DNA of 53,383 nt from Escherichia phage FXie-2024a: sequence record PP107930.1; one strand, given 5' to 3'. The number at the start of each line of letters is the position of its first letter. The first letter of the stretch is position 1. The notes under the pieces were generated by a model. That model searched no databases. It was not told the origin of the DNA and saw only the letters and a program-made list of their open reading frames with translations. This document shows, piece after piece, positions 1 through 53,181 of the stretch. A program made the translations under genes and the position numbers.

Positions 1-127
1 TTATAATATTGCCACAATTCTAGTCTCGTTAATATTGAACAAATTCGAGTCTCCAATATCGTAACAATTCTAGTCTCTTTAATTCTGTAGCAATATTCGA
101 AATAAAAAAAAAATTATAAAAAAAAAA
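1..127. repeat. Left copy of 127-bp terminal direct repeat
   Basis: Bases 1..127 are identical to 53257..53383. Contains internal sub-repeats (CAATTCTAGTCTC twice) and two A-runs. Could be a true terminal redundancy or an assembly overlap. Confidence 0.6.
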
Positions 128-170
128 TTATTTCATAGTCGGATTTCTGTTCGAACAAATTTCGGCGAGA

Positions 171-221
171 TACAGTTGACCGACCGTGAACGAATCTATA
201 TCCAGGTACAGTTGACCGACC
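171..221. repeat. Subterminal direct repeat, TACAGTTGACCGACC x2
   Basis: Perfect 15-bp copies at 171..185 and 207..221, just inside the left terminal repeat. Confidence 0.5.
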
Positions 222-400
222 ATGTACCATTTGGTTTTGAACTTTACGCATTCCTAATATTACTCTTAATATTGTAGCAATATTGGGAATAAGTAATATT
301 TAACTTACTTATTTTATTCTAGCTTAAAGAGAAACGACGCTAACGCATCGAATCTCTTCTCGCATATTAACTGGCAAACGTCAGCCTTCACCATATCCAA

Positions 401-1510
401 TCATAATTCAAATCCACCTAGAGCATCGGTATCAACTTCGGAATCAATCTGCCCGACAAGGTACGAACTAATCTCTGTTTCTTGTGGAGCAACTTGTACA
501 GCATCCGAATTCAACCATGCGTTAATCCAAGGAATCGGGTTAGTTGCACCTTTGAATGGAGCATCCAATCCAACAGCTTGCATACGAATATTCGTGATGT
601 ATTCCACATATCCAGACAAAATTTGCTTGTTTAAGCCAATCATTGAGCCATCTTTGAACAAATAATCAGCCCATTCTTTCTCTTGTTGGGCCACATTTTC
701 GAACATTTCTTGGCACTCTTGACGGCATTCTTTGGCAATTTCTGCCATTTCTGGGTCATCAACGCCGCTTGCAAGAAGGTTCAGCATGTGCTGAGTTCCA
801 GTCAAATGGAGTGCTTCATCACGAGCAATTAAGCGGATAATCTTGGCATTTCCTTCCATCAACTTACGTTCAGCGAAGGCAAATGAGCAAGCAAAGCTGA
901 CATAGAAGCGAATTGCTTCCAGTGCATTGATGGACATGAGGCATAAATATAGCTTCTTCTTAAGCTCATGCAGACTAACTCCGTTGTTGCCTTCTCCGTA
1001 GAGATGCCACAAGGAAGATAGTTCCTGAAGCTCGTCATAATATTGTGAGATGCCAATTGCACGAGAACGAATATGCTCATTCTCTACAATTTCATCAAAG
1101 ATGGCGCTTGGGTCTGTAACAATATTACGAATAATATGAGTGTAAGAACGGGAGTGAATTGTCTCTGAGAAGGACCAAGTTTCAATCCAAGTTTCCAGTT
1201 CAGGAATGCTCACAATTGGCAGCAAAACTGTAGTTGGTCCACGTCCCTGAATGGAATCAAGTAAGATTTGGTATCGTAAATTACTGGTGAAGATGTGTTT
1301 CTCACACTCAGGCAGACCAGCATAGTCAATTCGGTCCTGGCTAACATCAACCTCTTCAGGTCGCCAAAAGAATGATAACTGCTTCTCGATTAACTTCTCG
1401 AATATGCTGTACTTCTGTTGGTCATATCGAGCAACGTTAACGTTCTGACCAAAGAACATTGGTTCTAATAGTTGGTTATTCTTGGTTTGTGAAAAGGTAG
1501 TGTAAGCCAT
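401..1510 (-). CDS. nrdB: Ribonucleotide reductase class Ia beta (R2) subunit
   Basis: 369 aa, near full-length resemblance to E. coli NrdB as recalled from memory ([11 protein letters not shown]..., ferritin-like diiron core, C-terminal NrdA-binding tail). Confidence 0.9.
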
Positions 1511-2064
1511 TACAGATTTCCTAGATACTCATAGAATTTATGTCCACCATAGCGGCCCAGACCTTTGACATTCTTGAAGTTGCACTTCTCTGATGCTGTA
1601 CAAAAGTGAGTTGCTTTGGTGACAGAGGGTTGATTAAATAGTACAAAAGAGATTGCAACATTAATGGTGTCCAGAACTTGTTGTTGTTCCGTGGCATAAT
1701 TAATCTTTGCTACATGCTTCCATTGAGCATTCTTCTTCTTTGCTTCTCGTGTCCATGCAAATTGATTGCGTTGATAGACAACATTACAAACGGTGTTAGC
1801 GAATGGCTTCCCGAACTCTGTTCTATTACGGACGACATTAGCTACCAGAATCTTTCCATGTTTATCTTCACCACGAGCTTCGTACCAGATTACTTTAGTA
1901 TAGCATTCTAGCTCTTTGCGTTGTGAAGAAGATAGTTTCAGACTTCCATTTAAATAGGAATGACTTGCAAAATCTGTAATAGCAGAATTCACTGCCCCAA
2001 CCGAAGCTGGGGCGTTGATGTGAACTAAAGCTGTCAGAAGTGCAAGAACTTTGAATGATAGCAT
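1510..2064 (-). CDS. Cell wall hydrolase (SleB family) endolysin with N-terminal signal or signal-anchor
   Basis: 184 aa; hydrophobic N-terminus [24 protein letters not shown]; SleB-like motifs [17 protein letters not shown]. Confidence 0.6.
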
Positions 2065-2081
2065 TCGAGTTCCTTATCATT

Positions 2082-2423
2082 TCATCGTGCCTTCTTGAAC
2101 CACGTCAAAGGATTAAGTTGTTTGATTGCGCCAGAGAAACTTTCCCTGACAGTTGTAATAATGAGGTTAGCACCGATGACACCAATCACAATAGCCAATA
2201 CTAACTGCATAGTGACGTTAGTCGTGAAAGTCTCAAATGTGCCAGCGACCTGAAATGCAAACAGGCCGATTAAGCTGCATAGCGTCGCATCCAGCAACGC
2301 CTTGCTTAAACCCTCACTCTCGTATGCCCCACGGATTAAAGCCGTCAGGCCAGCCAGCAATCCATGCCAAACGCCATATTGGTGCATGAGGTCGAGAAAC
2401 ATCTGGATAGATAAGCGTTCCAT
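2082..2423 (-). CDS. Putative holin
   Basis: 113 aa with three hydrophobic helices and a charged C-terminus (KKAR), immediately upstream of the endolysin. Confidence 0.45.
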   Translation of the reverse strand: MERLSIQMFLDLMHQYGVWHGLLAGLTALIRGAYESEGLSKALLDATLCSLIGLFAFQVAGTFETFTTNVTMQLVLAIVIGVIGANLIITTVRESFSGAIKQLNPLTWFKKAR

Positions 2424-2430
2424 GATTTCC

Positions 2431-3477
2431 TTAAGCCACTCGTTTCCAGAGGGCGTAGTAGTGAACGGAGTTGGTTACATCAAATGCCGTACCGCTTCCG
2501 GTTGAGGTTGTGGTGTTATTATTTGGGCCACCTGTAGTGAGGGCAGTCCCACCAGTGTTAGCAGCACTAGAGCCACCTGACGTGCCTTTAAAGTTGGGCA
2601 AGTCTACCTGGTGGAAGTGTACCCCACTTTCGCTAGCCGTACCATCCATGTCATGGTAGTGGTCGCCAGCCCACTCAACGTTACGCGTACCCACAGAGCC
2701 AGAGTTGGAGCCAGCAAACAGTACAGGACTGACGTTAGCGTTGTTACCAAACGTAGCTGCGTGGGTGTGGTTCCCGTTAGTTGTGGTACGTCCCGTCACT
2801 GCGTGGGAGTGTGCACCGTTGGGCGTTGAGTTGTGAAGTGGATGCTTGTGGTCTATGGCATGAGTATGCGTCATAGAGTGGGTGTGAGAGGCAATACCGT
2901 GCGTGTGGTTCTGCATTCCGTGAGTGTGTCCAGGAATGTTTGGCACAGCAAGAGTTACAGTATCAGAGCCACCAGTTGAGCCAATCTGACCTTCGGTTGT
3001 ACCAGCTTCGGCAGAGGTAGCAGCACGGACAGAACGACCATCGACAATTTGTTCCCACACAGTTCCTGTGAAGGAGTTGTTTGGGTTGGTGGCATTCTCG
3101 AACTTTAACACAATTCCAATTGGGTAGATGGCGTTGTAGATATTGTTGGCATTAATCAGTTCTCTCCACGGGGTCCAAGTCCGGACCCCAGCTCCCTGGT
3201 CTTGAGAACGAATCCACATACGGAGGTTGCCGAAGTTTGTATATCTCTGTATACAGTTGTCAGAAGTACCGGCATGGGTGAGAAGAACTTCCAAGTTGCC
3301 AGCTTCGGCACCAGCAGGGTATCCATTTGCCACTGTTGCGTTTGCGTTCTGGTTCTGGGGGAACGTACCTACATTATCTCTTCCCCACATATCGTTGATG
3401 TTCTTGGTCCCCAAGGAATCTACACTTTTAGCATAGTGTTCCTGGACCAGCGCATCTAAAGAATAACCTTTAGCCAT
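2431..3477 (-). CDS. Tail fiber protein, distal tip with His-x-His repeats
   Basis: 348 aa; run of HTHGMQNHTHGIASHTHSMTHTHAIDHKH resembling metal-binding HxH motifs of T4-type fiber tips; Gly/Thr-rich C-terminus. Confidence 0.6.
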   Translation of the reverse strand: MAKGYSLDALVQEHYAKSVDSLGTKNINDMWGRDNVGTFPQNQNANATVANGYPAGAEAGNLEVLLTHAGTSDNCIQRYTNFGNLRMWIRSQDQGAGVRTWTPWRELINANNIYNAIYPIGIVLKFENATNPNNSFTGTVWEQIVDGRSVRAATSAEAGTTEGQIGSTGGSDTVTLAVPNIPGHTHGMQNHTHGIASHTHSMTHTHAIDHKHPLHNSTPNGAHSHAVTGRTTTNGNHTHAATFGNNANVSPVLFAGSNSGSVGTRNVEWAGDHYHDMDGTASESGVHFHQVDLPNFKGTSGGSSAANTGGTALTTGGPNNNTTTSTGSGTAFDVTNSVHYYALWKRVA

Positions 3478-3485
3478 TTTGAATC

Positions 3486-4868: not shown

Positions 4869-6014
4869 TTATGGCCTCATTAGCATTGATTGTTGATATG
4901 CGGTAAGTGTTGGGTAACAAATAATCTCTTCCACATACACAGCATTTGTAAAGCTCATGTTGGTAAGAAGGGTATTCATTGATGTGTATCCAGCAGACGG
5001 GGCCATTATAGACCTTGCCATAATGGCATTGCCAGATGCATCTCTCCCATACATGATTACTGATGTTGGACAGCTTACGTCAAAGCCTGTGAAAGTTACT
5101 GTGTTGTCATCCACCTTAAGCCCACCAGAGTTATGGAATACTGGTGTCCCTGAGGTAAATATTTTCCACCCACGTACAGAATACCCATCGTTCAAACTCC
5201 TCGACATGTTCATTCTGAGGTATGGTGTGGGTAGTGCGAATCTGTTTCCCCAACGAATCTGGAACTCACTGTAGTTGAGTTCTGTCATCACTTGGTACTC
5301 CACACCTCCAACACTCCAGGCCACATTGCCGAGGGCATCAATAGATAGAACCAAGTTACCACTTCTGAATTCGACTCGTCCAGTAGTACCATCCATGCTT
5401 ATTTTCTTGTTCGCTGCAAGAAGCATCCCATCAAGGAAAGTTACAGGGCCAGTGAACGTACCACCAGATGTTGGAAGAGTCCCAACCTGTTCTGGAGTTT
5501 CCTGGTGAACCTTACCTTCCTGTAGCTTATGATGTATGATAGTCTGTGGGTCGGTTGGACTTCCGAAAGCAGTATCTATATACTCTTTAGTCCGACTTTT
5601 GTCGGTGAGCGTTTCCACAGTATCTTGGTGTGGGTTTGTTGCTGCCATATGATTATCATAAATAAGTTTCAATGCTGAAACATCATTCAGATAATCAACA
5701 GTCTTCATGTCTAGGATTTGTTCCCATCCAGAGGCAACCTTGATTTGCACAACACCATTAAGAACAGACACTGCACCAGTTTGATAAGTAACACTGCTAT
5801 CAAACTCTGCCACACCAGAGAAGAGTAAAGATATAATCTTTAAATCACTAATCTGGGAAAGGAAGTTTTGCCACTCATTTGGTGGCTTCTCGACTTCCCA
5901 GCCCATGTCTGCATATCGGTTTGCAACATAACTTATGTTTGTTGTGTCCAAATCAGGGTCAGCAACTTCACCGTCTTGCGCCCAAGGGAATTTAAATGTT
6001 AAACGATTAGCCAT
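4869..6014 (-). CDS. Tail fiber protein (proximal)
   Basis: 381 aa; shares NPHQ and GGTFTGPVTF motifs with the 460-aa fiber; follows baseplate genes. Confidence 0.5.
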   Translation of the reverse strand: MANRLTFKFPWAQDGEVADPDLDTTNISYVANRYADMGWEVEKPPNEWQNFLSQISDLKIISLLFSGVAEFDSSVTYQTGAVSVLNGVVQIKVASGWEQILDMKTVDYLNDVSALKLIYDNHMAATNPHQDTVETLTDKSRTKEYIDTAFGSPTDPQTIIHHKLQEGKVHQETPEQVGTLPTSGGTFTGPVTFLDGMLLAANKKISMDGTTGRVEFRSGNLVLSIDALGNVAWSVGGVEYQVMTELNYSEFQIRWGNRFALPTPYLRMNMSRSLNDGYSVRGWKIFTSGTPVFHNSGGLKVDDNTVTFTGFDVSCPTSVIMYGRDASGNAIMARSIMAPSAGYTSMNTLLTNMSFTNAVYVEEIICYPTLTAYQQSMLMRP

Positions 6015-6655
6015 TATGTCTCCGGCGGATAGTCTTTAGAACTGAACACCAGGTCGATAACGCCATTGTTATCTTTAAGTGTTACAGTGATTCCAACGGG
6101 TTTAAATCTCGGAATCATGTGGGCCAGCATAACCTTGTCAGCAACTGACAAACTCTCATGAACTATGTAATCCATGCGCTTAAACCCTTCCTTAATCTCA
6201 AGGTCTAAGTCACGTCCAATTATAAGTTCAAGGTAAGTTATGATTTGTTCAATGTTGCAGTTGCCAGTTATCTTCGTAATCCTGGCATGTATTGCATTCT
6301 TAAGTTGCTCATCAGTACGGACAAAGTCCCCAGAGTCTCTGTCGTAGTCTGACTTCAAGATGCCGCCAACATCAGGATTATTATCATCCCCAGCTGGAAA
6401 TGCAGATGGCTCACGGTAGAAGCCAAAGTACCCAAGTGGCTTGGCACCAATTATGACACGCTCAGTTCCGACAATGTATGCAATATCGTCAACCATTACG
6501 CCAAACGAATCTGCTAGGTAACGATACTTAACAGAATCGGACATGGCTTGTTTAACTTCAGCAAACTCTTCTATGAAGATTGAGATATATTTCTTTAAGT
6601 TTGGTGAGTTGTAATACTGAGATAACAACATCCCCAAGCCATGTTTAATAGCCAT
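6014..6655 (-). CDS. Baseplate or tail-fiber attachment protein
   Basis: 213 aa; position between the baseplate J-like gene and the fibers. Confidence 0.35.
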   Translation of the reverse strand: MAIKHGLGMLLSQYYNSPNLKKYISIFIEEFAEVKQAMSDSVKYRYLADSFGVMVDDIAYIVGTERVIIGAKPLGYFGFYREPSAFPAGDDNNPDVGGILKSDYDRDSGDFVRTDEQLKNAIHARITKITGNCNIEQIITYLELIIGRDLDLEIKEGFKRMDYIVHESLSVADKVMLAHMIPRFKPVGITVTLKDNNGVIDLVFSSKDYPPET

Positions 6656-6656
6656 G

Positions 6657-7814
6657 TTACACCGTTATGTCAGTGAATGTGATATTAGCTTCCAGACCTT
6701 GAGCACGTTTATCAATGTCGAGTTCTATTGTTGCAGTACTTGTCGGATTTGCAGACAGGCCAATGAACAATGATTCAACCTCAATATATTGTACGGCAGA
6801 CATAATTGGTCCAAACATGTTTGACCAAACTACATCATCGCCAGGTTGTAGGCTATTCAAGTAACTTATCGCAGCAGCCTGTAATCTTTGTGCAGCATCG
6901 TTGGAACTAATGTTTGCAGAAGCCCTGCGACGGAAAGTACCTTTGACAAAGATTGGAGTACGAACTGGACGACTAAACTTGATTGGGTGTGGGTAGCCAC
7001 GAGAGTCGTTGATTGTGATTTCAATGTCACCATGAGTAGGAACACCACCAGTTTTGGCATTATAAATGCGTCGAGCAATGTCGTTACTCGTGCCACCATC
7101 AACTACAACAAAGACAGTGCCTGGAGGCTGACTGCCAATAGCAGCATCGGTATCATTATCACGAACACGAATGTAATCAATATCGAGGTCAGCGAGTGAA
7201 GCATAGATGGCTTCTGCCGTTGTGGCCGAATTGACTGCCGTTGTTTTGTCACGGCGTGCTCGGAGTTCTGGGTCAGACTCATAGTCTATTCCTGTTGTCC
7301 CAATTGTTGGGTTGGTTACAGAAGTCCAACCTGCAATAGGAGTCAGAATGTTAATGATTGTGTCGGCAGCAATGTAGTATTCACCAGGTTCAGTTGCAAC
7401 AGCAGTAACATCACCAGGCAGGGTTACATCTGTATCCAGCCTGAATTGACGACTGCCATCACTTACAAGCGAGCCAGCAGGAACCAGAGTGCCAGCAGTA
7501 CCATCGCAATACACAGTTGCTTGGGATGGCTTATTAACATATCGCTTAGTATTGGTAAGTTCGCAAACATTATCAAGTCCGACTCCTTCAACAGCGCCAG
7601 GTCGATATGCGTTGAACACTTGCTGGGCTTGTTCCCAACACGATGCAATCTCGTCTGATACTATCCCGATAACCTGCCCATCTGGGGACTCAGGACTTAC
7701 ATCAAAGTTGGCACCAAACGCTGCAATGAATTTGTTATTAAGGCTTTTAACAACTTCTGTGACGGGCTTTCTTACAAACCCGTCCTCTGTTACACCATAT
7801 TGTATTGTAGCCAT
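6657..7814 (-). CDS. Baseplate J-like protein
   Basis: 385 aa; size and position match baseplate J family of contractile-tail phages. Confidence 0.5.
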   Translation of the reverse strand: MATIQYGVTEDGFVRKPVTEVVKSLNNKFIAAFGANFDVSPESPDGQVIGIVSDEIASCWEQAQQVFNAYRPGAVEGVGLDNVCELTNTKRYVNKPSQATVYCDGTAGTLVPAGSLVSDGSRQFRLDTDVTLPGDVTAVATEPGEYYIAADTIINILTPIAGWTSVTNPTIGTTGIDYESDPELRARRDKTTAVNSATTAEAIYASLADLDIDYIRVRDNDTDAAIGSQPPGTVFVVVDGGTSNDIARRIYNAKTGGVPTHGDIEITINDSRGYPHPIKFSRPVRTPIFVKGTFRRRASANISSNDAAQRLQAAAISYLNSLQPGDDVVWSNMFGPIMSAVQYIEVESLFIGLSANPTSTATIELDIDKRAQGLEANITFTDITV

Positions 7815-8161
7815 GTTACAGTTTCCGAAATATCGCCATAGTCAGAGATGGCTACGAATGAAATATTAAGTTGGCGAGTCCTGAAATCAGCATCAATGTC
7901 AATAGACAAGAGTTGCTGAACACCCTCAGTACCACGGATAATGTTTGCAACTGCCGACTCTATGTCAGATACACGGACCTGCTTAGTGAAAATGGATTCA
8001 TACCAAGGAAGACCAATAGTGTCATCCAAAGCCCACTCACCAAATAATGTCAACAGTCTGCACTTAACCAACTGGGCCACCTGAGCGGCCCCTGATATAC
8101 GTGTTGCACCACGCCCAATAATAATGTCGTGGTTTGAATCTAAAGCTAAATTACCAGCCAT
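7790..8161 (-). CDS. Baseplate wedge protein (GPW/gp25-like)
   Basis: 123 aa; small protein immediately upstream of the J-like gene. Confidence 0.45.
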   Translation of the reverse strand: MAGNLALDSNHDIIIGRGATRISGAAQVAQLVKCRLLTLFGEWALDDTIGLPWYESIFTKQVRVSDIESAVANIIRGTEGVQQLLSIDIDADFRTRQLNISFVAISDYGDISETVTWLQYNMV

Positions 8162-11382: not shown

Positions 11383-14300
11383 TTATCTTCTTTGTTGCGC
11401 ACCATTGTGCATGTTCATTTGCTGAGTCACAGTCTGACCGCCAGGAACAGCTACAGTGGCAGATGCAGTTTGGTTATTAACCTTCGCATCAATCTTCACG
11501 TTAACAGTGGTTTGAGTTTGACCATAGGAGATACCATTCCGTGTGAATCCAGTCGCACCTTCATCCAAGCCTTTGGAAGACTTAGCCCAATCACGATACG
11601 CTTTAACACGTTTCTGAGCCTGAGCCGGGACAGCACTGAGCCAATCCATTCCAAACTTATCGACAGCCTTGTCAACAGTTCCAGCACCATCCGTATAAGC
11701 AGCCATCGCTTTCTCATGGTCGCCACCGAATCGTTTATACATTGCATCATAGTATTCACGACCAACACGAGCATCCTCTTTAGGACTTCCGTCAGAAGGT
11801 TTGATTCCATAACCTGGGTCACGGGCAGTAGAAGGAAGAACCTGCATGATTCCACGAGCACCAGTTGGGCTTGTAACTCGTGTACCATCCTTGTTATATT
11901 CCTTGCCACCAGACTCTTCACCAGCAATGAAATCATAAACGTTTGCAGCAACTTGTCGGGCTTGACTGTAGCCAGAGTTAGCAGCACCAGCAGCAGTGCT
12001 TCCAGCTTCGAACAGTGCAGCACCATGAGATAACACACTTTGTGGCACGTTATACCCTGGCAGAAGCTGTGCGCGCTCCACCTGCAACATTTCTGACTGA
12101 GCCATACCTTCGGCAAAGTCGGAGTTTCTACCGCTTTCTACCACCGAACCTGCTCGCTCATGGCTGTATTCCGTGCGGTCGAAGGCACGGGCCATGCCAT
12201 CCAGCCCAGCCATCTGCGCAGCACCAGCGATACGGGCCTGACTCCAGCCACGTTCCTTGCCTCTTTCCTGCATGATGCGAGCGAGGGCCACAGGGTCGCC
12301 GCCAGTCGAGCGAATATCACCTATGGTGAGCAATCCCCTACTGCCACGAACAATGTTCACAGCGGCGCTGGGGTCGCCGTTAAGCATGGTGTTGTAGGCA
12401 CTATGTGTGGTTTGATTCAAACGGCTAGCTTGCTGGGAGTTTAGCCCCAACATTTCCAAGCCTTGTGACATGGAAGAGTATTCATTTGGATTAGCTACGC
12501 CAGCATCAAGAGATTGACCAATGTAGTCATTCATGAAGCCAGCAGCTTCGTTACCAATCTGAATTGCACCAATACCAACTGCCGCCATACGTCCAGCAGG
12601 AGTTGCCATCAATGCTTGCATCACACCGTTTGATGCAGAAGATAAACTCCCACCAGCGATGCCAGAAGCAAGTGCACCACCTGCCTTTCCGAAGTCATCA
12701 CTAAAGTTTCCACCCGCCGAGAAATATCCTCGACCACCGCCGCCACCACTGCCGCCACCATTTGCTGCATCGAAACGTTCCTGATTCCAACCAACAGTGG
12801 AATCTTGTTTGCCATCGAAATCGGCATCTACGCCAGAGATACCTTTCTGTTTGTTCTCTTCCTGAGCAGCTAAGATACCACGCTTAACAGAAAGGGCCAT
12901 TGAGTCATTACTTCCATCACCAACTGTGGCCGGGAAGTTCTGCTCGTGCATAACAAAGTTTGGTTTGTAGTCAGAAGTGCCGCCAGGATTTGGGTCGAAA
13001 GAAGAACGAGAACCAATGAATGGGTCTTCTGACGTACCAGCAGCAGGACTAAACCCACGATTAGAGCGTTGCTTAACATCCTTCCAGATGCCATCACCCA
13101 TCACTGCACTACGAGCACCAGCGACAAGTTCTTCTCGGTCTAGTGAAGGATTGTTTCTAACAAACTCTCGCCCAGCATCAAGGCGACCAAGCACAGAATC
13201 AAGACGATTTCGGTTTCTTTCGTACCATCCTTCGTCTTTCTCAATCCATTGCGAACGGGTTTCGTTGTTGATAGTTTGAGAGAACAGAGCGCGGTTACGA
13301 CCAGATACATGCATACCAAATTGAACTTGGTCCATGTAGTCTGGATGGTCGCCACTAAGAAGGTCAGCAAACTTACCAGCCCTTTGCGGATTCTTATGCT
13401 CCCAAATGGCGTCATCACCAATAAGGCCGTCAGGAGAATACATAAAGGCGGGATAGTTATCATTTGTTATAGCGCCAGTTTGAGCAATATTGAATCCAAA
13501 TTCCTTACTTACGCGAGCGCGTGCTTCTTCTTCCGTTCTGTGACCATCAGCGAACATCTTCTTAGTGAAATCGCTTGGCTCTTTACTTCTGGATATTCCA
13601 AGTTTGTCAACCATCCCAGCCCAAGGTCGGGTGTATGCGTTGTTACCAAGGAACGTACCAACTGTAGAGCCAGTTACGTCGTACTGCTTACGAAAGTCTA
13701 ACCACTCTTGACTACCTTGCTCAAGGTCATGGAACTTGACTGGGGACTCGGACTTTCCAGTTCCGTAGTCTGATACATCCCTGAATCCTGCACTATCCAT
13801 GTTTGCAATCGCAAGTTCTTCACGACGCATTCTAGCAGAGTTCCAGTTGGTTGCTTCACCAAGTTGTGCAGTAAACTCTGTAGAAGTTGATTGTGCATCC
13901 TTAACAATCTTCTGTGACGCAGACTTCATTTCTGGAATGCGAATAGGTTCAGCATCCATTTTGTCATAAGTGTTTTCGAGAATTGTTCGAACACTTGATG
14001 CAGAATATGAAGGTTCGTCAGCAAGCTCTGATTTAAGGTTGGCATACCCACTACGAGCTTCTTCCAAATCTGCATAACGAGTAGCAGAATCCATAATCAT
14101 GTCACGGTCAGATACTTCATGACGCGTGTTGTTCATTCCGGTTTTGCCAGAGTAAACTTTAGCAGCAGACTTAACAGCCTCGCTGATAGATGAATACAAT
14201 GCCTTGCTTGGTTCGCTCCAGCCAGTGCCACCAGTTAATGATGCAGTGAGTGAGTATTCTGGATTGATGCCAGAACCATAAGAACCAAGAGGTAAGCCAG

Positions 14301-15102
14301 ACGCGTTAAGAGGTTGGCGAGGATGTGAGATGCCAGAAACAATTGTCGGAGAACCAATTTGCGGAAGTGCATCCATGTATGAAATATGTGGAGCCGATTT
14401 ATTTCCTACATTAGAGGCAGCGGTATACCCAATCTCCTTAAAGGAGGGAGGCAACTCTTGTTCCAGACGTTTGGCAACTCGACTAATGTCTCTTGCGTAT
14501 AATTCATGACTTGCATATTTCTCACGGTCAACATACATGTGGGCCATGTAGTTATAAGAGTCAGCAATGTTTCCACGGTTGGTGGAGTATTCTGCCATAA
14601 TATCACCAGTGTAATGTCCTGGGATTTCCGGCATAATATCTTGATGCCCTTGCAAAGTATCTCGCATATAGGCATTAAGCATGTTGAAGTTGCCTTGCGG
14701 CAAGTCTGGATTGGCTTTCGGCATGTGCATCCACACATCATCTGTGTTGACACCAAGCCTCTCCATATATGCATGAACTGCTTCTACATGGTGTTGCGGA
14801 CCGTTCATTGCATTGTGAAACGCTTCTGTGTAACCAGCGCTTGAAAGCATCTGAGCTACATGAGCAGCGTCTGAAATCATGGATGAATCACCAAAAGATT
14901 CTGTATAAACTTCACCAGTGTCTTCGAATGTTCCACCCATTAATTCTGCATTTGTTTCCATCCATCCAGAAGCAGCACTCGCACTAAGTTGTTGAACCAT
15001 GTGCGACTTCTTCATACCAGCATGGAAAGTCAGACCGCTCTGTGCACCAAGAGCAATTAACTCGCTAGTGCCTAACTTCATTAAATCTTTTTGATTAGCC
15101 AT
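11383..15102 (-). CDS. Tail tape measure protein with lytic transglycosylase domain
   Basis: 1239 aa; largest ORF; SLT-like segment GIMQVLPSTARDPGYGIK near the N-terminus; Gly-rich linker; located after sheath, tube and chaperone. Confidence 0.7.
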   Translation of the reverse strand: MANQKDLMKLGTSELIALGAQSGLTFHAGMKKSHMVQQLSASAASGWMETNAELMGGTFEDTGEVYTESFGDSSMISDAAHVAQMLSSAGYTEAFHNAMNGPQHHVEAVHAYMERLGVNTDDVWMHMPKANPDLPQGNFNMLNAYMRDTLQGHQDIMPEIPGHYTGDIMAEYSTNRGNIADSYNYMAHMYVDREKYASHELYARDISRVAKRLEQELPPSFKEIGYTAASNVGNKSAPHISYMDALPQIGSPTIVSGISHPRQPLNASGLPLGSYGSGINPEYSLTASLTGGTGWSEPSKALYSSISEAVKSAAKVYSGKTGMNNTRHEVSDRDMIMDSATRYADLEEARSGYANLKSELADEPSYSASSVRTILENTYDKMDAEPIRIPEMKSASQKIVKDAQSTSTEFTAQLGEATNWNSARMRREELAIANMDSAGFRDVSDYGTGKSESPVKFHDLEQGSQEWLDFRKQYDVTGSTVGTFLGNNAYTRPWAGMVDKLGISRSKEPSDFTKKMFADGHRTEEEARARVSKEFGFNIAQTGAITNDNYPAFMYSPDGLIGDDAIWEHKNPQRAGKFADLLSGDHPDYMDQVQFGMHVSGRNRALFSQTINNETRSQWIEKDEGWYERNRNRLDSVLGRLDAGREFVRNNPSLDREELVAGARSAVMGDGIWKDVKQRSNRGFSPAAGTSEDPFIGSRSSFDPNPGGTSDYKPNFVMHEQNFPATVGDGSNDSMALSVKRGILAAQEENKQKGISGVDADFDGKQDSTVGWNQERFDAANGGGSGGGGGRGYFSAGGNFSDDFGKAGGALASGIAGGSLSSASNGVMQALMATPAGRMAAVGIGAIQIGNEAAGFMNDYIGQSLDAGVANPNEYSSMSQGLEMLGLNSQQASRLNQTTHSAYNTMLNGDPSAAVNIVRGSRGLLTIGDIRSTGGDPVALARIMQERGKERGWSQARIAGAAQMAGLDGMARAFDRTEYSHERAGSVVESGRNSDFAEGMAQSEMLQVERAQLLPGYNVPQSVLSHGAALFEAGSTAAGAANSGYSQARQVAANVYDFIAGEESGGKEYNKDGTRVTSPTGARGIMQVLPSTARDPGYGIKPSDGSPKEDARVGREYYDAMYKRFGGDHEKAMAAYTDGAGTVDKAVDKFGMDWLSAVPAQAQKRVKAYRDWAKSSKGLDEGATGFTRNGISYGQTQTTVNVKIDAKVNNQTASATVAVPGGQTVTQQMNMHNGAQQRR

Positions 15103-26412: not shown

Positions 26413-26769
26413 TCAGATAGGTTTCCAGGTAGTTACTGTAACTGTTTCGGTGACTTTGTGTACCTTAAAGATTTCACTTACAGAATCCCAATAGATGCCG
26501 TTAGAATAATCTTGAGTACACTCCATCATCCAAGTTCCTACAAGTTGCTCTGGAGTCAATGACGTACCTTTAAAGCAGTCAAGAATCTCCTTAGCCAATT
26601 CCAAGTCAATCTCCTGAATATACTTTACAAAGCATTCAGAGTATTTCCTGTGAACAGACTCAACTTCTGTAGGGTCTTCAAAGATATTACGAACAAAGGA
26701 TTTAAACTGCGCAGACGTAACATCTGCACCGTATTTTTTAATCTTCATTGGATGCTCCGCGAAGGCCAT
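26413..26769 (-). CDS. Hypothetical protein
   Basis: 118 aa ORF tightly packed between dUTPase and the 109-aa gene. Confidence 0.4.
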   Translation of the reverse strand: MAFAEHPMKIKKYGADVTSAQFKSFVRNIFEDPTEVESVHRKYSECFVKYIQEIDLELAKEILDCFKGTSLTPEQLVGTWMMECTQDYSNGIYWDSVSEIFKVHKVTETVTVTTWKPI

Positions 26770-27362
26770 TACTTATAAAGTTCAGCGCCGTGGGTGTGGG
26801 CACCGATTGAAGTTGTGCCTGAAACAAAGGCCGTTGTGCCTTCGCCAACGACAGAGAGGCTGTGTGAGTGTGAACCGTCAGGAATATGCGGCCTTTCATG
26901 TTGTCCAAGTTCCACACGACCAGTTGAGCCAAACCCACCTTCGCCACGACCAGTTGCATTCAGGCGGTCAACTTCAACGAAATGGTGTTGAGTAGCTTTA
27001 CTAACTTGCACCTGACAAATACGTTCACCTGGCTGAACCACAAAGGCTGTGTCCGAATCGTTGTGCAACTTAACCATAAGATTACCACGATAATCGGAGT
27101 CCAGAATTCCTGTACAGTTTGCCAGGCGAATACCAGACTTAAAGCCATGACCAGAACGGCTATGCACTTTGAGTTCGTATCCAATTGGAACCTCGAACTG
27201 GAGGCCAGTATCGAAAACAGCAGAGCAGCCGGGATTGATAACAACAGTGCTATCGGAGATAGTGCAAACGTCAGCAGCAGCAGCGCCAGCAGTAGCGTAC
27301 ACAGGTAATTTCGCATGAGGATGCACTCGCTTTACAGCAACAACTTGAGTCATACAAGACAT
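26769..27362 (-). CDS. dut: dUTP diphosphatase with C-terminal extension
   Basis: dUTPase motifs HSRSGHGFK, GILDSDYRGN, RGEGGFGSTGR; frame continues about 45 aa past the usual end. Confidence 0.8.
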   Translation of the reverse strand: MSCMTQVVAVKRVHPHAKLPVYATAGAAAADVCTISDSTVVINPGCSAVFDTGLQFEVPIGYELKVHSRSGHGFKSGIRLANCTGILDSDYRGNLMVKLHNDSDTAFVVQPGERICQVQVSKATQHHFVEVDRLNATGRGEGGFGSTGRVELGQHERPHIPDGSHSHSLSVVGEGTTAFVSGTTSIGAHTHGAELYK

Positions 27363-35270: not shown

Positions 35271-35921
35271 TTATTCCTGGTTGGTCAGAGCCTTCCAACA
35301 AATTGGGAACAGTTCTGACATAATTTTATTCACTTCTTCCGCAAACAAGCGAACTTCATATTGCGCATGTTCGGAGGAACGTTGATTATACATAGATGCC
35401 CAGCCATAAAGTGAGCCAGTCCAAATCCATTCAGTCATCATGGATTGTGGAAGAACCATGCGAGCTTGCTCTGGGGCAATCCCCAAACCAATTAACGTTT
35501 CATACTCTGCAATGCAAGCCTTGTTGTGGCTTTCCATGCGATAATGAATGTCATCAGCAAAATCTTGCGGCAACGGTTGTGCAGTCTGAGTCATCAACTT
35601 CTCAGGACGACCGAATACAACACCTGGTACAAAGCATTCAATCGAGATTGCTTCACCATCTTTGTAACGACGGCTAACCTCATTCCAACTAAAGCCAGTT
35701 TGGTGTTTGCCAAGCTGACGTGCAATGAAGATTGGGGCCTTGCAGCGAAGAGTTACCTGTGCGTGACGAAATGGAGTAATGTGCTTATGCTTTGCAAGAA
35801 ACTCAATCAGCTTCTCGTCTCGCAAGGACATTTCATGCGACTCTGCACCATAGGAAACTCGTGCAGCATTAACAGTTGTAAGGTCGTCGCCCATGCGGTC
35901 GACAAGTGTTGCAGTAATCAT
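35271..35921 (-). CDS. ThyX-family protein with altered nucleotide-binding motif
   Basis: 216 aa; aligns along its length with flavin-dependent thymidylate synthase as recalled (AARVSY, KAPIFIARQ, SEHAQYE), but the RHR motif reads KHQ. Confidence 0.65.
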   Translation of the reverse strand: MITATLVDRMGDDLTTVNAARVSYGAESHEMSLRDEKLIEFLAKHKHITPFRHAQVTLRCKAPIFIARQLGKHQTGFSWNEVSRRYKDGEAISIECFVPGVVFGRPEKLMTQTAQPLPQDFADDIHYRMESHNKACIAEYETLIGLGIAPEQARMVLPQSMMTEWIWTGSLYGWASMYNQRSSEHAQYEVRLFAEEVNKIMSELFPICWKALTNQE

Positions 35922-36806: not shown

Positions 36807-37417
36807 AGAAGACTACCTTATATGTGATTGAGGTTGCGGCCTTTACGCGGCCAACGTGCCATTAATGCTGGCAAGACAGAGCTAACGTTCTCAAGCACTT
36901 TGGCGAGGATGTTCTCGGACACTGTTTTAGGAAGTGACCACCTGAACGTCTCGTGTTCATTACGTTGACTTTACGGAGTCATCGGAGCTTCGTTCTCAAG
37001 CACGCCGTTTTCTTCTTTGGCCGGAGTCAAGCCGCAAGCCTTTGTCTCGGTGGACTAACCTTCTCACACTAACGATGTGTAGCGGGACGTTCCAATCCTA
37101 GGAGGCAGCAATTTTAATTGTTATGCCCAGAGCAACGTGCGGGCTTTCACCGACTTCCTCGAAAGGTTGGGTTCACGTTATTTATAGTCGCGCATCCCAC
37201 TCGACTGCCAAATGTTGTTGATGCGATGGCGAGCATTTGTTTCACTGTACTTGTTTATAGATGCAACAGGCTCATCTTGTTCACTCACTGTCGGGTAAGT
37301 TTAGAACACTTTTGTGCCCACGTTTCATTGTGGACTAAAATCTGTGTTTTGGTTTCGCGTGACAAAACTTTTACTTCTGCAACATCCAAATAGATTGGTT
37401 GTGCAATCAAGCAGTAG

Positions 37418-37654
37418 TCACTTACGAACCCACTTTGAGAGCAACTCGTTATCGACATTGCTATCAGAACTGCTGCTAACTTCTTTCTGAACATGCGATT
37501 TAATCTCGATAGATTCTTTTAACGAATCGAATTGCTTCTCTTTGGCTTCCTGACGCTCCTCGGCTTTGCCTGAGCTTTTGCCTTTGAGGAACACTGCAAG
37601 GAGAATGCCCAATGCAGTCAAGACGCCAAGAAAGATTGACTTAAGCTGTTGCAT
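37418..37654 (-). CDS. Small membrane protein (N-terminal TM helix plus charged tail)
   Basis: 78 aa; hydrophobic IFLGVLTALGILLAVFL then a Lys/Glu-rich region. Confidence 0.45.
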   Translation of the reverse strand: MQQLKSIFLGVLTALGILLAVFLKGKSSGKAEERQEAKEKQFDSLKESIEIKSHVQKEVSSSSDSNVDNELLSKWVRK

Positions 37655-37661
37655 GAATCAC

Positions 37662-37802
37662 CTTAGATGGCGCACGCACCACTTGAGCAGTCGTTATCAC
37701 CAGCACCAGGAACGATTGCTTCTTCGTCCTGCTTCTTCTTGAGTTCTTCAATTGCTTCTTCGGCAGCACCGAAGTCCAAATTGTCTAATGCATCAAAATC
37801 CA
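37662..37802 (-). CDS. Unlisted 46-aa acidic peptide
   Basis: ATG at 37800..37802 to TAA at 37662..37664; MDFDALDNLDFGAAEEAIEELKKK...DCSSGACAI; between the tRNA-like element and the membrane-protein gene. Confidence 0.25.
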
Positions 37803-37831
37803 TGAGGACTCCATGTTTGTTGTTGAGAGTG

Positions 37832-37924
37832 GCGGACGAGGTTGGGTTCGAACCAACGACACATCTGTCTTACAGATTGCTCTACCTGACTAAGCTCTGG
37901 AGCAGACCTTCTGAGCTACTCGTC
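37832..37924 (-). tRNA. tRNA-like element with non-canonical D region
   Basis: 7-bp acceptor pairing (GGACGAG / CTCGTCC), canonical T arm GTTGG-TTCGAAC-CCAAC, discriminator G and encoded CCA. About 93 nt; D and anticodon arms do not fold canonically. Confidence 0.4.
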
Positions 37925-38305
37925 CAGAATAAGGTGGGGGGTTTTGGTAACGCAGGTTTTCCCAAACTGCGAGGCTTGTAGCAAGACAGTCGCATTACTT
38001 TGCGAATGCCAGCAGGATTGATGGTCCGACCGTCTTTGCTTAGGCAACCTGATTTAATCTACCTTTGTAGATACCATCGGTTAGAGTAGTTTATTTCCAT
38101 GCTCAGGGCAATTCACTTATGCGAATTAGGTTACGCAGTGCAGCTTCGAAGTCACTGCCACAGGTTTGAGGTTTCCTGTGTGGAGGGAAATCCAGAGGAG
38201 CACTTCCTCAAGGAGTTACGTTTCATATTGGCATAGCTTCTCACACTAAACCAATTGAAGACATTCCAGTGTGCTCGTCCGTCCTCTAGAAATATCCAAC
38301 TGCAT

Positions 38306-38465: not shown

Positions 38466-38635
38466 TATTGCTCCGATTTATTAATCACATCTCGAAGCCA
38501 CAATGCGCCAAATTTGGTTACATGGGATTGGAAGACCACGGAGAGAACTTAAATCTAATTAAGCTGCAACTCGCATTTCAGAATCATTTGCACTTGTGTT
38601 TAGTGTTTAAAACAGTCGCATAATAACGAAATGAA

Positions 38636-49779: not shown

Positions 49780-50650
49780 AATCTGTCACAGAATTTACAG
49801 AGATTTGGTCTTATTCACATGCAACTAATGATAAATGAACATGCTTAATTGCAACTAATTCATCTGCCAAATAGACGAATTTTGTCACAATCAAACATGC
49901 ATCATTAATTATAGGTTTACACCTATCTTGGAATGTATTTGGCACATCAAGAAGTGGCGCAATAGGTACGGAAAACCGACCATGTACAGCATAATAAAAC
50001 CAATTAAATAAAGGGTTTTATCCCAATATTGTCACAATATTTACATGCGATGATAAAGCCTTCGCTTGGCTGGAAGCCAGTATTCATGCGGGTTGCAAGA
50101 ATATTGGGTCATTGCTGATACAGCTATTACATGCGAAATTGGCACAAATACTGTTACAAAATTAACATGCCAGATTGGCAGACGATTGTATCTTCGAGGT
50201 GATTAGTCCTCTAACAATTCTGCCACATTCCAACATGCCAATTTGTAGCAATATTTACATGCCATACTGCGACGCAATTGTCACAATATTTGTTGCTCAA
50301 AATCGGGGCGGCTTCTGCGTGCAAACGAGAGGCTTAGTCCGACTTCTTCTCTTCTTTCGATTTCTGATTGAAAGAAAGAAGCATGTCCAAAAGTTCCAAT
50401 ATTACCAAAGTTATCTCCCGGCTTGTGGGTGGGCCTTTATAATAGGAGATGGAGCAATATTGTCGCAATTGAACATGCCATAGGTGAAGTACAAGTTTCG
50501 GATAGATATTCCTACTCTGTGTCATGGTTGCTGGAACTATAGGTGGCCTACCTAGGGAGTTCAATGATTGCCACATCATTACAACACTGTAACTCAAAGC
50601 TGACATGCTGAATGTTTCTAGAATGATTCAACATTACATGCGGAATATTT
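49780..50650. repeat. Iteron-like repeat cluster (candidate origin or promoter array)
   Basis: ORF-free ~0.9 kb with about 10 to 12 copies of a 18-19 bp motif near TTGTCACAATATTTACATGC (examples 49882..49900, 50029..50048, 50151..50170, 50221..50238, 50243..50262, 50460..50478). Confidence 0.55.
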
Positions 50651-50721
50651 CTCCGTATTCTTTTACTTCACATCCAACTAATGTAAGAGTTGTGTAACGA
50701 TATTGAAGACAGCTCTTAAAT

Positions 50722-50752
50722 TAATTGAAACAAGAAAAGGGAGCCGAAGCTC
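50722..50752 (-). terminator. Intrinsic terminator after the RNA polymerase operon
   Basis: Minus strand reads GGGAGCTTCGGCTCCC followed by TTTTCTTGTTTC, just after the 66-aa ORF stop at 50760. Confidence 0.5.
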
Positions 50753-50759
50753 CCAAGTA

Positions 50760-50960
50760 TCAGAACGGTATCTCTGTATCAAAGTACCCAGAATTGTGTA
50801 AGAATGAGTGCAATAATACATGCGATTCTTGCTTATATTCTGCTAACAATTCTAAGAAGTCTTTAGTCTCCTCCACTGTAGGACGAGATAAGTTGCTCAT
50901 GTCACAGGTGTGATGAGGATTGAAACAGTTTTCGATTTGATTGATTTGTTGAATGTTCAT
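50760..50960 (-). CDS. Hypothetical small protein
   Basis: 66 aa ORF immediately downstream of the RNA polymerase gene. Confidence 0.4.
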   Translation of the reverse strand: MNIQQINQIENCFNPHHTCDMSNLSRPTVEETKDFLELLAEYKQESHVLLHSFLHNSGYFDTEIPF

Positions 50961-51009
50961 TATAAGTCTCCAAGTTTGTGGTCATCCTTGACCCAATTAG
51001 TGTCACTGA

Positions 51010-52950
51010 TTATTGACAGAAGTAGTAAGCGTGTTCGCTCATCAGAAGCTCTTCAGTTACGATGTTCTCGTGATACATCTGAATGCCGCCAAGTTGCTTA
51101 GACAGATTCTCGAATTGATTGTTGGTTACAAAGATTTCAACATATGCTGCACGAATAACTTCCATCATACGTGGAGCATCAGCTAAGCAGCAACGGAAAC
51201 AATCATGGATTGAAGTGAAGCCACGAAGACCAGCTTCTTTAGCTTTAACTGCAACAGTACGAGCAACAAGTGCATCAATACCTTGAATGTAGTTAACAAC
51301 GAAGGTGCGTTTAAATTCTTCCTTAGTTGGATTGGATTCACGAATGGTCCAAGGCTTGTTCTCCTGAATCTGGCCAAAGATAACACGAGTTTGGCTGTCA
51401 ACACGGATGCTGAATGCCTCACAGATTTCACGAGATGGGAAGCAAGGCTTCATTACAACCTGACCATCAGTGTGACGATATGTGATGTACTCTTTGTTGA
51501 GTTCAACACAACGGTTGTATGCAGCATCAGCAGCTTTCTCGATGAACATGTTAATCTTAGCACCCAATGCGTTATGGATTGCTTCTACACACAGTTCAGC
51601 AAATGCCTCAGCTTTCTCCATAGGAATCTGGAGAGATGCAGTCATGTATGCAATGAAGTCAGAAGAACCAGTCAATGCAGCTTTACCACCACCGTATTGA
51701 ATAGCCATATACGGAGTTTTGATAAACTTACGACCAGCTTTCGGATTCAAGAATTCATCCATGATTTCAGGAGATGGTTTCATTGAAGAACGGTCGAGCA
51801 GCTTCAACAGTTCACGAAGACTCAACTGGTATGGGTCAGATGCTTTAGTCTCAGAATCAACCAGACCTGTTGCACGAGCCATTTCCATGTTACCAGCAAT
51901 GAATGCCAGATATTGAGTACCAGAACATTTAGCATCTAAACCAAAGCCTACACGAGAATCGCACTCACCTGTAGTCTCAAACTTGAACCAATCCAGAGCC
52001 AGACGAACATAAGTGAATGGCTTAGAAGGACGTTCAGATTTGTCCATGTTCATCATGCGAGCAAGTGAACCAGCTGGATTTGATGCAACATAAGTTAATC
52101 GCTTAGCAGAAGCCCATTCACCACCAGAAATATCTTCCAGCTCTGCCATGAACATGTTGTATGCAATGGTAGTAGAACCATCTTCGTTAAACTTCTTAAC
52201 GATGTTCTCAACATTGTGAGAATACAAGCAACGAGCAAAGTCAGATGATTGTGGGTTAGGACCAGCACATGCTACATGATACAGACGACCACGGTTATCA
52301 GCAAAGTAGTCAGAGTACAGTGTATCCTGAGTCATCATTGCTACAGCATTGTTCCAAACATGGAGTTCAGTCTGGATTGCTTCTGGCATCTGCAAGCCAC
52401 CATAAGTACGCTGCTCAATCATGGACTGGATGATGCGAACCATCTCAGTCTCCACATGGTACTCAGTATCTTGCAGGAATTCGATTGCAGCTTTCAGAGT
52501 CTTGGATGGCTTAACTTTGCCACCTTTAACGAAAGGCTTGCGACGAGATTCAGTGGTAACACGCTCAGTGAATGGCACTGAGGTATCTTTGGTTGTAACC
52601 AGCTCAACCCATGCATCAGTTTGTTGGAACGACTTATCTTCGTTCATGGTGATGAAGCCAAAGTGTTTAGCCAGACCAATCAGGTTGATAGCTGGGTCAA
52701 CATAGTGCATTGCTTTCAAATCGTTGTTATAACGGTTGGCATCAGCAATAGAAGCAGAAGCCAGTTCAACCATCGAGATGGCAGGTACAACATCGTCACG
52801 AGTGAAAGACGTCATCATCTTGAAGATGGCTAACGCAGCAATAGCACAAGTCTGAGGCTGCATATAGTTCTGTTTCTCTTTGGCACGGTATACCAGAGCA
52901 GTGATAGCAGGAACAACGGATTTGATAGTTTGAGTAGAGATAGTAGTCAT
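51010..52950 (-). CDS. Single-subunit DNA-dependent RNA polymerase, compact form
   Basis: 646 aa from MTTIST (GGAG ribosome-binding site). T7-RNAP-like motifs: DNRGRLY, motif A GLDAKCSG, motif B KTPYMAIQYGGGK, motif C SIHDCF. N-terminal domain much shorter than T7 RNAP. Confidence 0.8.
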   Translation of the reverse strand: MTTISTQTIKSVVPAITALVYRAKEKQNYMQPQTCAIAALAIFKMMTSFTRDDVVPAISMVELASASIADANRYNNDLKAMHYVDPAINLIGLAKHFGFITMNEDKSFQQTDAWVELVTTKDTSVPFTERVTTESRRKPFVKGGKVKPSKTLKAAIEFLQDTEYHVETEMVRIIQSMIEQRTYGGLQMPEAIQTELHVWNNAVAMMTQDTLYSDYFADNRGRLYHVACAGPNPQSSDFARCLYSHNVENIVKKFNEDGSTTIAYNMFMAELEDISGGEWASAKRLTYVASNPAGSLARMMNMDKSERPSKPFTYVRLALDWFKFETTGECDSRVGFGLDAKCSGTQYLAFIAGNMEMARATGLVDSETKASDPYQLSLRELLKLLDRSSMKPSPEIMDEFLNPKAGRKFIKTPYMAIQYGGGKAALTGSSDFIAYMTASLQIPMEKAEAFAELCVEAIHNALGAKINMFIEKAADAAYNRCVELNKEYITYRHTDGQVVMKPCFPSREICEAFSIRVDSQTRVIFGQIQENKPWTIRESNPTKEEFKRTFVVNYIQGIDALVARTVAVKAKEAGLRGFTSIHDCFRCCLADAPRMMEVIRAAYVEIFVTNNQFENLSKQLGGIQMYHENIVTEELLMSEHAYYFCQ

Positions 52951-53006
52951 TTGTAAGTCTCCAAGATTGTGTATGATTTGAATGAAACGGATTATAATAG
53001 CGTAGC

Positions 53007-53024
53007 CATTACACAATTCACGTC
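53007..53024 (-). promoter_or_regulatory. Copy of recurrent 18-bp motif, about 60 nt upstream of the RNA polymerase ATG
   Basis: Plus strand TTCACGTCCAACTAATAT; family consensus TTCACATCCAACTAATGT. Confidence 0.35.
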
Positions 53025-53181
53025 CAACTAATATCACAAACCTGTGCCATTGTTACAACAGCACGGAGACTTTGACCTTGACTCATAAGCGAAGCGCCTA
53101 ACTTGGTGTTGATTGAAAGCCGATAGGCTGTAGGAAAAAGTTGGGGTAGGGACCGTATTTTAAGTCCGATAGGACGTTGGG

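Follow-up and report, generated by a model that had tools for sequence, protein, structure and literature searches.

How can a phage make use of the radical-bearing small subunit of a ribonucleotide reductase (RNR) if it encodes no large subunit? This question is raised by the nrdB gene of Escherichia phage FXie-2024a (sequence record PP107930.1), a member of the genus Carltongylesvirus (phiEcoM-GJ1/Mangalitsa group). The stretch of 53,383 bases that was analyzed, hereafter the window, is the whole phage genome, circularly assembled, and essentially all of its genes lie on the minus strand. An initial annotation had noted a host-like nrdB with no partner nrdA anywhere in the genome, and had proposed that the phage subunit pairs with host NrdA or that the gene was recently acquired from the host. 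We consider it probable that the gene provides a functional beta2, which would dock on host NrdA through a host-like tail and supply the radical. The gene and its docking tail are located as follows:

401..1510, minus strand: nrdB, class Ia RNR beta subunit, 369 amino acids (aa), apparently intact (ATG open reading frame and family models)
404..463, minus strand: C-terminal 20 residues, equivalent by alignment to E. coli beta 356-375, the peptide docking onto alpha

The product matches PF00268 (Ribonuc_red_sm) with an E-value of 2e-49 (168.9 bits for a cut-off of 33.6). The NCBIfam equivalog for class Ia NrdB (NF006576) gives 705.9 bits for a cut-off of 346, with residues 1-369 aligned to 1-376, and the PDB chains of E. 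coli R2 match the phage protein over its full length (E ~1e-201). A protein search against host NrdB, which the initial annotation had proposed as a check, was run with BLASTP and gave 301 identical residues out of 376 (80%) over the whole length with one 7-residue deletion. This bears out the statement that the protein is NrdB-like throughout. That it is very close to E. coli NrdB holds at the protein level, but the DNA identity is only about 70% and the gene is equally distant from all Enterobacterales. The deletion falls in a loop at about residues 176-184, whose length varies among phage orthologues and gives proteins of 366, 369 or 372 aa. The iron ligands D84, E115, H118, E204, E238 and H241 (two ExxH motifs), as well as Tyr122, Trp48, Asp237, Glu350 and Tyr356, are kept in the window protein and in five orthologues. 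Compared with E. coli NrdB (R2; PDB 1RIB/1MXR, holocomplex 6W4X), the phage protein thus belongs to the same fold family and has identical key residues. It differs by the loop deletion, by 17 clade-specific substitutions including D369A and by a phage-like G+C content at third codon positions (GC3), and its gene has no adjacent nrdA or yfaE and is placed in a late lysis operon. As judged from these features, a catalytically competent class Ia NrdB, i.e., a di-iron/tyrosyl-radical protein, is the best explanation for the phage gene product. An R2-like ligand-binding oxidase or another ferritin-like identity was rejected, as R2lox models reach 18-23 bits for cut-offs of 194-286 and the RNR pathway residues are present. 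A 494-aa "NrdB" (P0004) was discarded as an assembly artefact holding translated adapter repeats.

The absence of a partner gene was confirmed by several searches. With tblastn, the best hit of E. coli NrdA in the window had an E-value of 0.79, and neither E. coli NrdA nor that of Aeromonas phage pAh6-C gave a match at E<=0.05 in the window or in the genome of phage Mangalitsa. Among 931 six-frame stop-to-stop segments searched with phmmer and with a two-sequence profile in hmmsearch (--max), the best E-values for NrdA were 0.3-0.4, and the catalytic barrel of NrdA had no match in any frame. The divergent NrdA-like gene that the initial annotation had named as a possible refutation was therefore looked for in all six frames and not found. 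The ORFs (open reading frames) of at least 400 aa are all otherwise assigned (tail fibre, tape measure, sheath, portal, terminase, DNA polymerase, primase-helicase, RNA polymerase), and the largest ORFs without a family match have 288 and 305 aa; a 381-aa ORF in the tail-fibre cluster, hypothetical in the Mangalitsa annotation, was left out of this individual scan. The related genomes of about 52 kb are likewise annotated without a large subunit. Because the six-frame searches were empty and the long ORFs are assigned elsewhere, the core of the observation stands. The missing nrdA bears on the self-sufficiency of the protein and not on its identity as NrdB. Helper proteins were also searched for with tblastn: YfaE, TrxA, GrxA, NrdH and T4 NrdC gave nothing below E 0.09 in the window, and the small CxxC proteins of the window resemble zinc ribbons. 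Since no homologue of NrdA, YfaE, thioredoxin, glutaredoxin or NrdH was found, the phage NrdB must depend on host partners if it acts as an RNR.

We then considered the age of the gene. Compared with all 5,426 complete E. coli genomes, the phage nrdB DNA shows 69.4-70.6% identity. The proportion of synonymous differences (pS) relative to E. coli is 0.83-0.87, i.e., saturated, and GC3 is 0.40 in the window gene and 0.40-0.44 in phage nrdB genes vs 0.645 in E. coli nrdB. When 5.8 billion proteins were searched, the phage clade came first (91-95% identity), followed by the E. coli cluster (80%) and then by essentially all other Enterobacterales (76-78%). Enterobacterales NrdBs are 85-94% identical among themselves and 83-86% identical to a Pasteurellaceae sequence. 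The NrdBs of the phage clade are 77-82% identical to all of these bacterial proteins and form their own long branch outside all Enterobacterales in a neighbour-joining tree, a placement in which long-branch effects are likely. Inside the phage clade, protein divergence reaches 9%, dS (synonymous divergence) reaches 0.86 and the ratio of nonsynonymous to synonymous divergence (dN/dS) is 0.02-0.08. The recent host acquisition considered in the initial annotation is contradicted by the DNA identity, the saturated synonymous sites, the phage-like GC3, the separate long-branched clade and the low dN/dS. Judged by these comparisons, nrdB is an old, selectively maintained phage gene and not a recent capture. 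The fraction of a species' own atypical NrdB residues that recurs in the phage is highest for E. coli (12 of 34), and there is a weak hint that the source of the capture may have been Escherichia-like.

Of note, partial matches to the phage nrdB are found at 202 places in E. coli plasmid records. For the single case listed and inspected, plasmid pEco_M21170_105 (L020, 3421..4302), the DNA match is 76.7%, above that of the chromosomal gene. This plasmid nrdB is truncated by IS91 and lies beside a thymidylate synthase gene and dfrA51.

The C-terminal tail that in E. coli NrdB docks onto NrdA is present, as had been claimed: 16 of its 20 residues match E. coli K-12 (80%), with L370, F373 and L375 kept. 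In the phage clade the tail ends in [DN]ALGGFEL, with four differences from E. coli (D369A, S371G, N372G and Q374E). When the tails of 114 bacterial NrdBs were compared, S371G, N372G and Q374E were also seen and occur naturally in Enterobacterales, and D369A was the only tail residue outside the bacterial variation. Beta residues ~366-372 were described as a binding determinant (PMC11067019). Over the whole protein, the phage clade has 17 fixed substitutions at positions where the same 114 bacterial NrdBs are at least 95% conserved. Two of them, D302Q and Q306G, lie near I297, the beta residue that plugs into a dATP-induced alpha pocket in the inactive ring (PMC11447812). I297 and its immediate neighbours (SMIGL) are conserved in the phage NrdB, and an escape from dATP inhibition was rejected on the ground that this key residue is conserved.

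The gene environment could give clues regarding the timing of nrdB expression. The relevant features are:

2082..2423, minus strand: holin (PF05106, 6e-08)
1510..2064, minus strand: endolysin (Hydrolase_2; PF07486, 2.5e-15), directly upstream of nrdB and translationally coupled to it; a SAR (signal-arrest-release) endolysin in relatives
1516..1522, minus strand: Shine-Dalgarno-like AGGAAAT upstream of the nrdB ATG, read from the sequence
322..363, minus strand: hairpin ~40 nt downstream of the nrdB stop, terminator-like, probable end of the late/lysis unit

The endolysin stop codon TAA (1510-1512) and the nrdB ATG share one base (TAATG); flopper, Pel53, GJ1 and PYps23T are annotated with this 1-nt overlap as well. 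An identical Shine-Dalgarno sequence is listed for ORF79 of phage ST32 (PMC6266442). The hairpin is the sole terminator-like site in positions 1-3600 (91-nt fold of -30.4 kcal/mol, z -3.9), and its core is unchanged across five genomes (window, Mangalitsa, flopper, Pel53 and PYps23T). Because of the coupling to the endolysin gene and the conserved terminator-like hairpin downstream, nrdB appears to close the late lysis operon as its last cistron. The initial annotation had placed it after the lysis cassette, which is correct as the holin and endolysin genes precede it, and as the last gene before the left terminus, which is not, as this terminus is an assembly cut marked by a 127-nt overlap. 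A sigma-70 scan of positions 1-3600 for a promoter of nrdB itself was not informative (7 sites vs 6.1 expected), and the promoters of the phage RNA polymerase of this family are not known (PMC12842549).

The lone nrdB is not new: it had already been catalogued for this known phage genus. It is annotated in about 45 GenBank genomes, from 2007 onward (phiEcoM-GJ1, ST32, Mangalitsa and others), and is present in all of the about 45 genomes of the group. A survey published in 2013 lists phiEcoM-GJ1 as "nrdB only" (Dwivedi et al., Table S1; PMC3653736), and nrdB was reported to be the last ORF in ST32 and phiEcoM-GJ1 (PMC6266442). Plating of these phages is described as poor at 37 C (PMC6266442, PMC6753284). 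The orthologues phiEcoM-GJ1 gp75, ST32 ORF79, Mangalitsa gp81, flopper gp26 and PYps23T ORF080 share with the window gene the position after the endolysin, the 1-nt overlap, 91-96% protein identity and the lack of nrdA. The window is a distinct genome, with a NrdB of 369 aa vs 366 or 372 aa. Erwinia phage Y2 carries neither nrdB nor nrdA in its whole genome, and its endolysin gene is followed by two tiny ORFs and then by the terminal repeat. At the corresponding genome end, the only part checked, Pectobacterium phage PM1 and coliphage 4HA13 have no nrdB after the endolysin gene.

Complete phage-borne class I RNR sets for dNTP (deoxynucleoside triphosphate) supply are found in T4, T5 and, within the same family, in Aeromonas phage pAh6-C (Nefertitivirinae; gp78-gp80). 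pAh6-C has its own nrdA (509 aa, barrel domain at 7e-58) and nrdB beside the terminase gene. Unlike in the window, T4, T5 and pAh6-C have the genes for both subunits next to each other in the replication module. The pAh6-C NrdB is an independent acquisition, since it is only 32% identical to the window protein and lies at a different locus. Independent of the pAh6-C set, the lone host-like nrdB is an addition specific to its genus, at a site typical of such add-ons.

Some other features of these related genomes were observed. In pAh6-C (L004), nrdA-nrdB (5281..8032) are annotated as hypothetical proteins only. The pAh6-C NrdA begins at about residue 195 of E. coli NrdA and has no ATP cone, and the ~59 residues at its end, with the Cys pair among them, are encoded in another frame (gp79), by a frameshift or a sequencing error. 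The record PP952070 (L010), "Staphylococcus phage Pel53", is labelled as a phage of S. hyicus and shows 85% DNA identity to these coliphages. It carries the endolysin-nrdB arrangement and the 46-aa ORF described below, and its host label looks doubtful.

In the scenario that we favor, an ancestor of Carltongylesvirus would have captured nrdB long ago from an enterobacterial host, and the captured gene would have been appended to the end of the late holin-endolysin operon. The phage beta2 would dock through its C-terminal tail onto host NrdA (alpha2), the partner to be expected because the phage has no alpha subunit, and would supply the radical for nucleotide reduction. The reduction of the enzyme and the maintenance of its cofactor would be left to the host, since no phage redoxin or YfaE was found. 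Such a hybrid could raise or sustain dNTP synthesis during the shutdown of host gene expression, phage DNA synthesis and packaging, and so benefit the phage. The intact catalytic and radical-transfer residues, the host-like tail, the strong purifying selection and the absence of a phage alpha are consistent with it. The genome also invests in dNTP supply through two other genes, which we count in favor of a hybrid reductase:

35271..35921, minus strand: ThyX, flavin-dependent thymidylate synthase (PF02511, 3.5e-42)
26769..27362, minus strand: dUTPase/dCTP-deaminase-like protein (PF00692 1.1e-22, PF22769 2.6e-09, phrog_135 2e-61)

Most chordopoxviruses encode R2 only, and vaccinia F4 forms functional hybrids with host R1 through its C-terminal residues (PMC2900304). 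As in the phage, the small subunit is encoded alone, resembles that of the host and keeps its C-terminal R1-binding residues. The poxvirus case is eukaryotic and its hybrid and replication requirement were shown experimentally; for the phage gene, late timing is deduced from operon position.

Several points weigh against a hybrid with host NrdA. The RNR subunits of T4 reportedly do not cross-react with those of E. coli, so cross-species pairing cannot be assumed. R328A, V340N, N343A, V351T and D369A all fall within the C-terminal region that contacts alpha; the 114 bacterial NrdBs are at least 95% conserved at these sites and never show the phage residues. Docking onto host alpha could be either strengthened or weakened. 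For a gene that supports replication, the end of a late lysis operon is also unusual in both location and timing. Moreover, nrdB is dispensable for this type of phage, because sister genera, including coliphage 4HA13, do without it. In the literature searched, no paper testing the phage NrdB protein was found, and no data on a complex between a phage NrdB and a host large subunit for any phage.

If the hybrid reductase exists, it would be the bacterial-virus counterpart of the poxvirus R2/host-R1 enzyme, and would mean that the radical-bearing subunit alone suffices to boost dNTP synthesis. It would explain the "incomplete" RNR gene sets of surveys, whose function remained unknown (PMC3653736). 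The system would be very tractable, as no other RNR large subunit has been studied as well as E. coli NrdA. A natural variant of beta2 that differs by 20% and has clade-specific changes in the tail contacting alpha would be useful to probe how the subunits dock, how the radical is transferred and how dATP inactivates the enzyme.

Other explanations were weighed against this hybrid. The phage beta2 might replace host beta2 on NrdA to give a differently regulated hybrid and not more enzyme, for example one that binds more tightly, resists dATP-induced alpha4beta4 inactivation or does not respond to a host or competitor control. We regard this as rather unlikely. The 17 clade-fixed substitutions would fit, with five in the alpha-contacting region and two near I297, but the conserved I297 and SMIGL neighbours do not, and nothing positively indicates that ring formation is lost. 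Drift along a long branch could leave a like substitution pattern in a phage gene. Still less probable is a non-catalytic role, in which the protein would bind NrdA or another host factor, block or sequester it (dominant-negative) and so shut down host dNTP synthesis, or act as a decoy against a defense system. R2 tail peptides are classical competitive inhibitors of RNR assembly, and the host-like docking tail is retained in the phage. Catalytically dead vaccinia F4 is also a dominant negative (PMC2900304). However, the iron ligands, Y122, W48, E350 and Y356 are under strong purifying selection and a mere binder needs none of them; the constraint on residues that serve radical chemistry alone makes a decoy role unlikely. 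Furthermore, dNTPs are required in a lytic phase that runs on its own DNA polymerase.

The view that nrdB is a recent capture or a neutral passenger, with no role in the phage, is refuted by the data and has very little probability left. The end of a lysis cassette is indeed where add-on genes accumulate, and sister genera lack nrdB, but the divergence and base composition given above, the occurrence in about 45 genomes and the low dN/dS all speak against it. We give almost no credit to the last alternative, a phage large subunit that is too divergent or too split to be recognized. It could draw on the 46-aa ORF, which ends like the C-terminus of NrdA, and on the pAh6-C nrdA, apparently interrupted near its 3' end; split nrdA genes reportedly exist in phages. 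It is opposed by the lack of any catalytic-barrel match, by the assignment of the long ORFs to other functions and by the annotation of the relatives of about 52 kb.

This 46-aa ORF was the best NrdA match in the window, although individually insignificant:

37663..37803, minus strand: 46-aa acidic ORF (MDFDALDNLDF...GDNDCSSGACAI, then stop), with a C-terminus resembling the NrdA redox-shuttle tail

Its full sequence is MDFDALDNLDFGAAEEAIEELKKKQDEEAIVPGAGDNDCSSGACAI. The extreme C-terminus of E. coli NrdA (LVPSIQDDGCESGACKI; ending in QDDGCESGACKI before the stop) carries the redox-shuttle cysteines C754/C759. Both sequences show an acidic run followed by Cys-x4-Cys-x-Ile-COOH, and 9 of their last 17 residues are identical without gaps. 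Unlike NrdA, the 46-aa ORF is free-standing and without the catalytic barrel, and its homologues occur in phages with and without nrdB. Being a stand-alone protein with no barrel, it is not an NrdA but at most a mimic or a remnant. In a gapless scan of ~190,000 positions (window and other chasevirus loci), it was the top match for the NrdA 11-mer (score 41, next 32), and in a scan of the same scale also for the 17-mer (51, next best 38). Among the top-scoring matches listed, it was the sole one anchored exactly at a stop codon. The statistics on this likeness are post hoc.

Among six genomes, pS of the 46-aa ORF is 0.18-0.49 and the proportion of nonsynonymous differences (pN) is 0-0.03; by this pattern, the ORF is real and under strong purifying selection. 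It is present in 45 phage records, which equals the number carrying a nrdB of at least 90% identity. The same architecture is shared by a syntenic, unannotated 40-aa ORF of phage Y2 (...EDESDCDGCKI; L005, 16137..16259), by a 57-aa metagenomic homologue (...GDNDCTSGACAI) and by the C-terminal part of an 89-aa Serratia jumbo phage protein (...DDGDCEGCKI). Mini-proteins ending in CxxC-K-I are also found in other Erwinia/Pantoea chaseviruses. The Y2 mini-protein weakly matches the very end of jumbo-phage RNR large subunits (E 6-8; end position confirmed for Kaldavass) and the C-terminal end of an RNR PHROG (E 0.18). With hhalign, the mini-protein family aligned to three NrdA C-termini with P 1.4e-4 and a probability of 53%, both sides being end-anchored. 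Two caveats concern a link to nrdB: Y2 has the mini-protein without nrdB, and the 46-aa gene adjoins spanin genes and not nrdB.

It is conceivable, but rather doubtful, that the phage refits the host class Ia reductase with two trans-acting parts, its own beta2 and a 46-aa protein copying the NrdA tail. As a protein on its own, the latter could shuttle reductant, or it could serve as a decoy for thioredoxin/glutaredoxin or for the NrdA active site. If so, the CxxC-K-I mini-proteins of Erwinia/Pantoea chaseviruses and Serratia jumbo phages would form an undescribed class of phage RNR modulators. We keep the 46-aa ORF as a lead apart from the nrdB finding, its link to nrdB being a candidate only. 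Its N-terminus was also considered as a mimic of the NrdB docking tail (DALDNLDF vs DDLSNFQL) and rejected, as the likeness is within chance: the score, calculated by hand, is 18, and in a 10-mer scan of 195,521 positions the 12 best matches scored 22-31 and did not include DALDNLDF. This motif is conserved within the mini-protein family.

The spanin-like ORFs belong to the early/middle region, where they come directly after the 46-aa ORF on its downstream side, ~35 kb from the holin-endolysin pair, and the layout is alike in 4HA13 and PYps23T. They comprise an i-spanin-like ORF with an N-terminal membrane helix (37418..37654, minus strand) and an overlapping o-spanin-like ORF with a lipobox (...ITSC; 37285..37494, minus strand).

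Regarding the genome as a whole, Escherichia phage Mangalitsa is the nearest record, with 93.8% identical nucleotides across 95% of the first 25 kb of the window, followed by phiEcoM-GJ1, ST32, flopper, SKA49 and the Yersinia PYps23T group. The taxonomy lines of the closest records read Chaseviridae; Cleopatravirinae; Carltongylesvirus, which ruled out a placement in Wifcevirus. The genome has the hallmarks of the family, including a primase-helicase, a family A DNA polymerase, ThyX, the dUTPase/dCTP-deaminase-like protein, myovirus structural genes and a holin-endolysin pair. The features relevant to its ends are:

1..127, no strand: assembly overlap, identical copy at 53257-53383
50330..53163, minus strand: region homologous to the 3234-bp terminal repeat of Mangalitsa (blastn of Mangalitsa ends; boundaries approximate, by homology only)
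51010..53037, minus strand: RNA polymerase gene inside the repeat-homologous region, with two small ORFs

Bases 1-127 are identical to bases 53257-53383 (direct repeat D1, 127 nt, 100% identity), and the unit length of the circularized contig is 53256 bp. As this repeat is the assembler overlap of a circular contig, the window ends are arbitrary and not the physical ends of the genome. The Mangalitsa record carries a 3234-bp direct terminal repeat with the RNA polymerase gene (repeat_region annotation and PhageTerm statement), and a terminal repeat of 2.3 kb was experimentally shown for PYps23T (PMC8762354). When the Mangalitsa ends are mapped onto the window, the repeat boundary falls near 53163, ~0.5 kb downstream of nrdB. 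By homology with Mangalitsa, nrdB would be the last sizeable unique gene, followed in the virion by the right-hand copy of the repeat with the RNA polymerase gene. The PYps23T and Y2 records have a right-hand copy of this gene at the corresponding end.

The intergenic stretch after nrdB (1-400, minus strand, continuing into 53164-53256) is more conserved than the synonymous sites of nrdB. It contains the repeated motifs AATATTGCTACA (twice), GGTCGGTCAACTGTA (twice) and GAGACTnGAATTGT (three times) as well as two long T runs. Because they adjoin the terminal-repeat boundary deduced from Mangalitsa, these motifs may be packaging or early-promoter signals. A 45-aa ORF at 114..251 had no family match in PHROG, the one collection against which it was scanned.

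No tRNA or other RNA genes were detected in the whole window with ARAGORN and Rfam. A stretch of ~0.9 kb (37804-38702) is without a minus-strand ORF of at least 50 aa. At the homologous spot, a tRNA-Arg that may contain an intron is annotated in phiEcoM-GJ1, and a tRNA-Cys lies nearby in PM1. Elsewhere in the window, the tape-measure-like protein (1239 aa; 11383..15102, minus strand) combines a YqaJ-like recombinase/exonuclease domain (1.3e-12) with a lytic transglycosylase domain.

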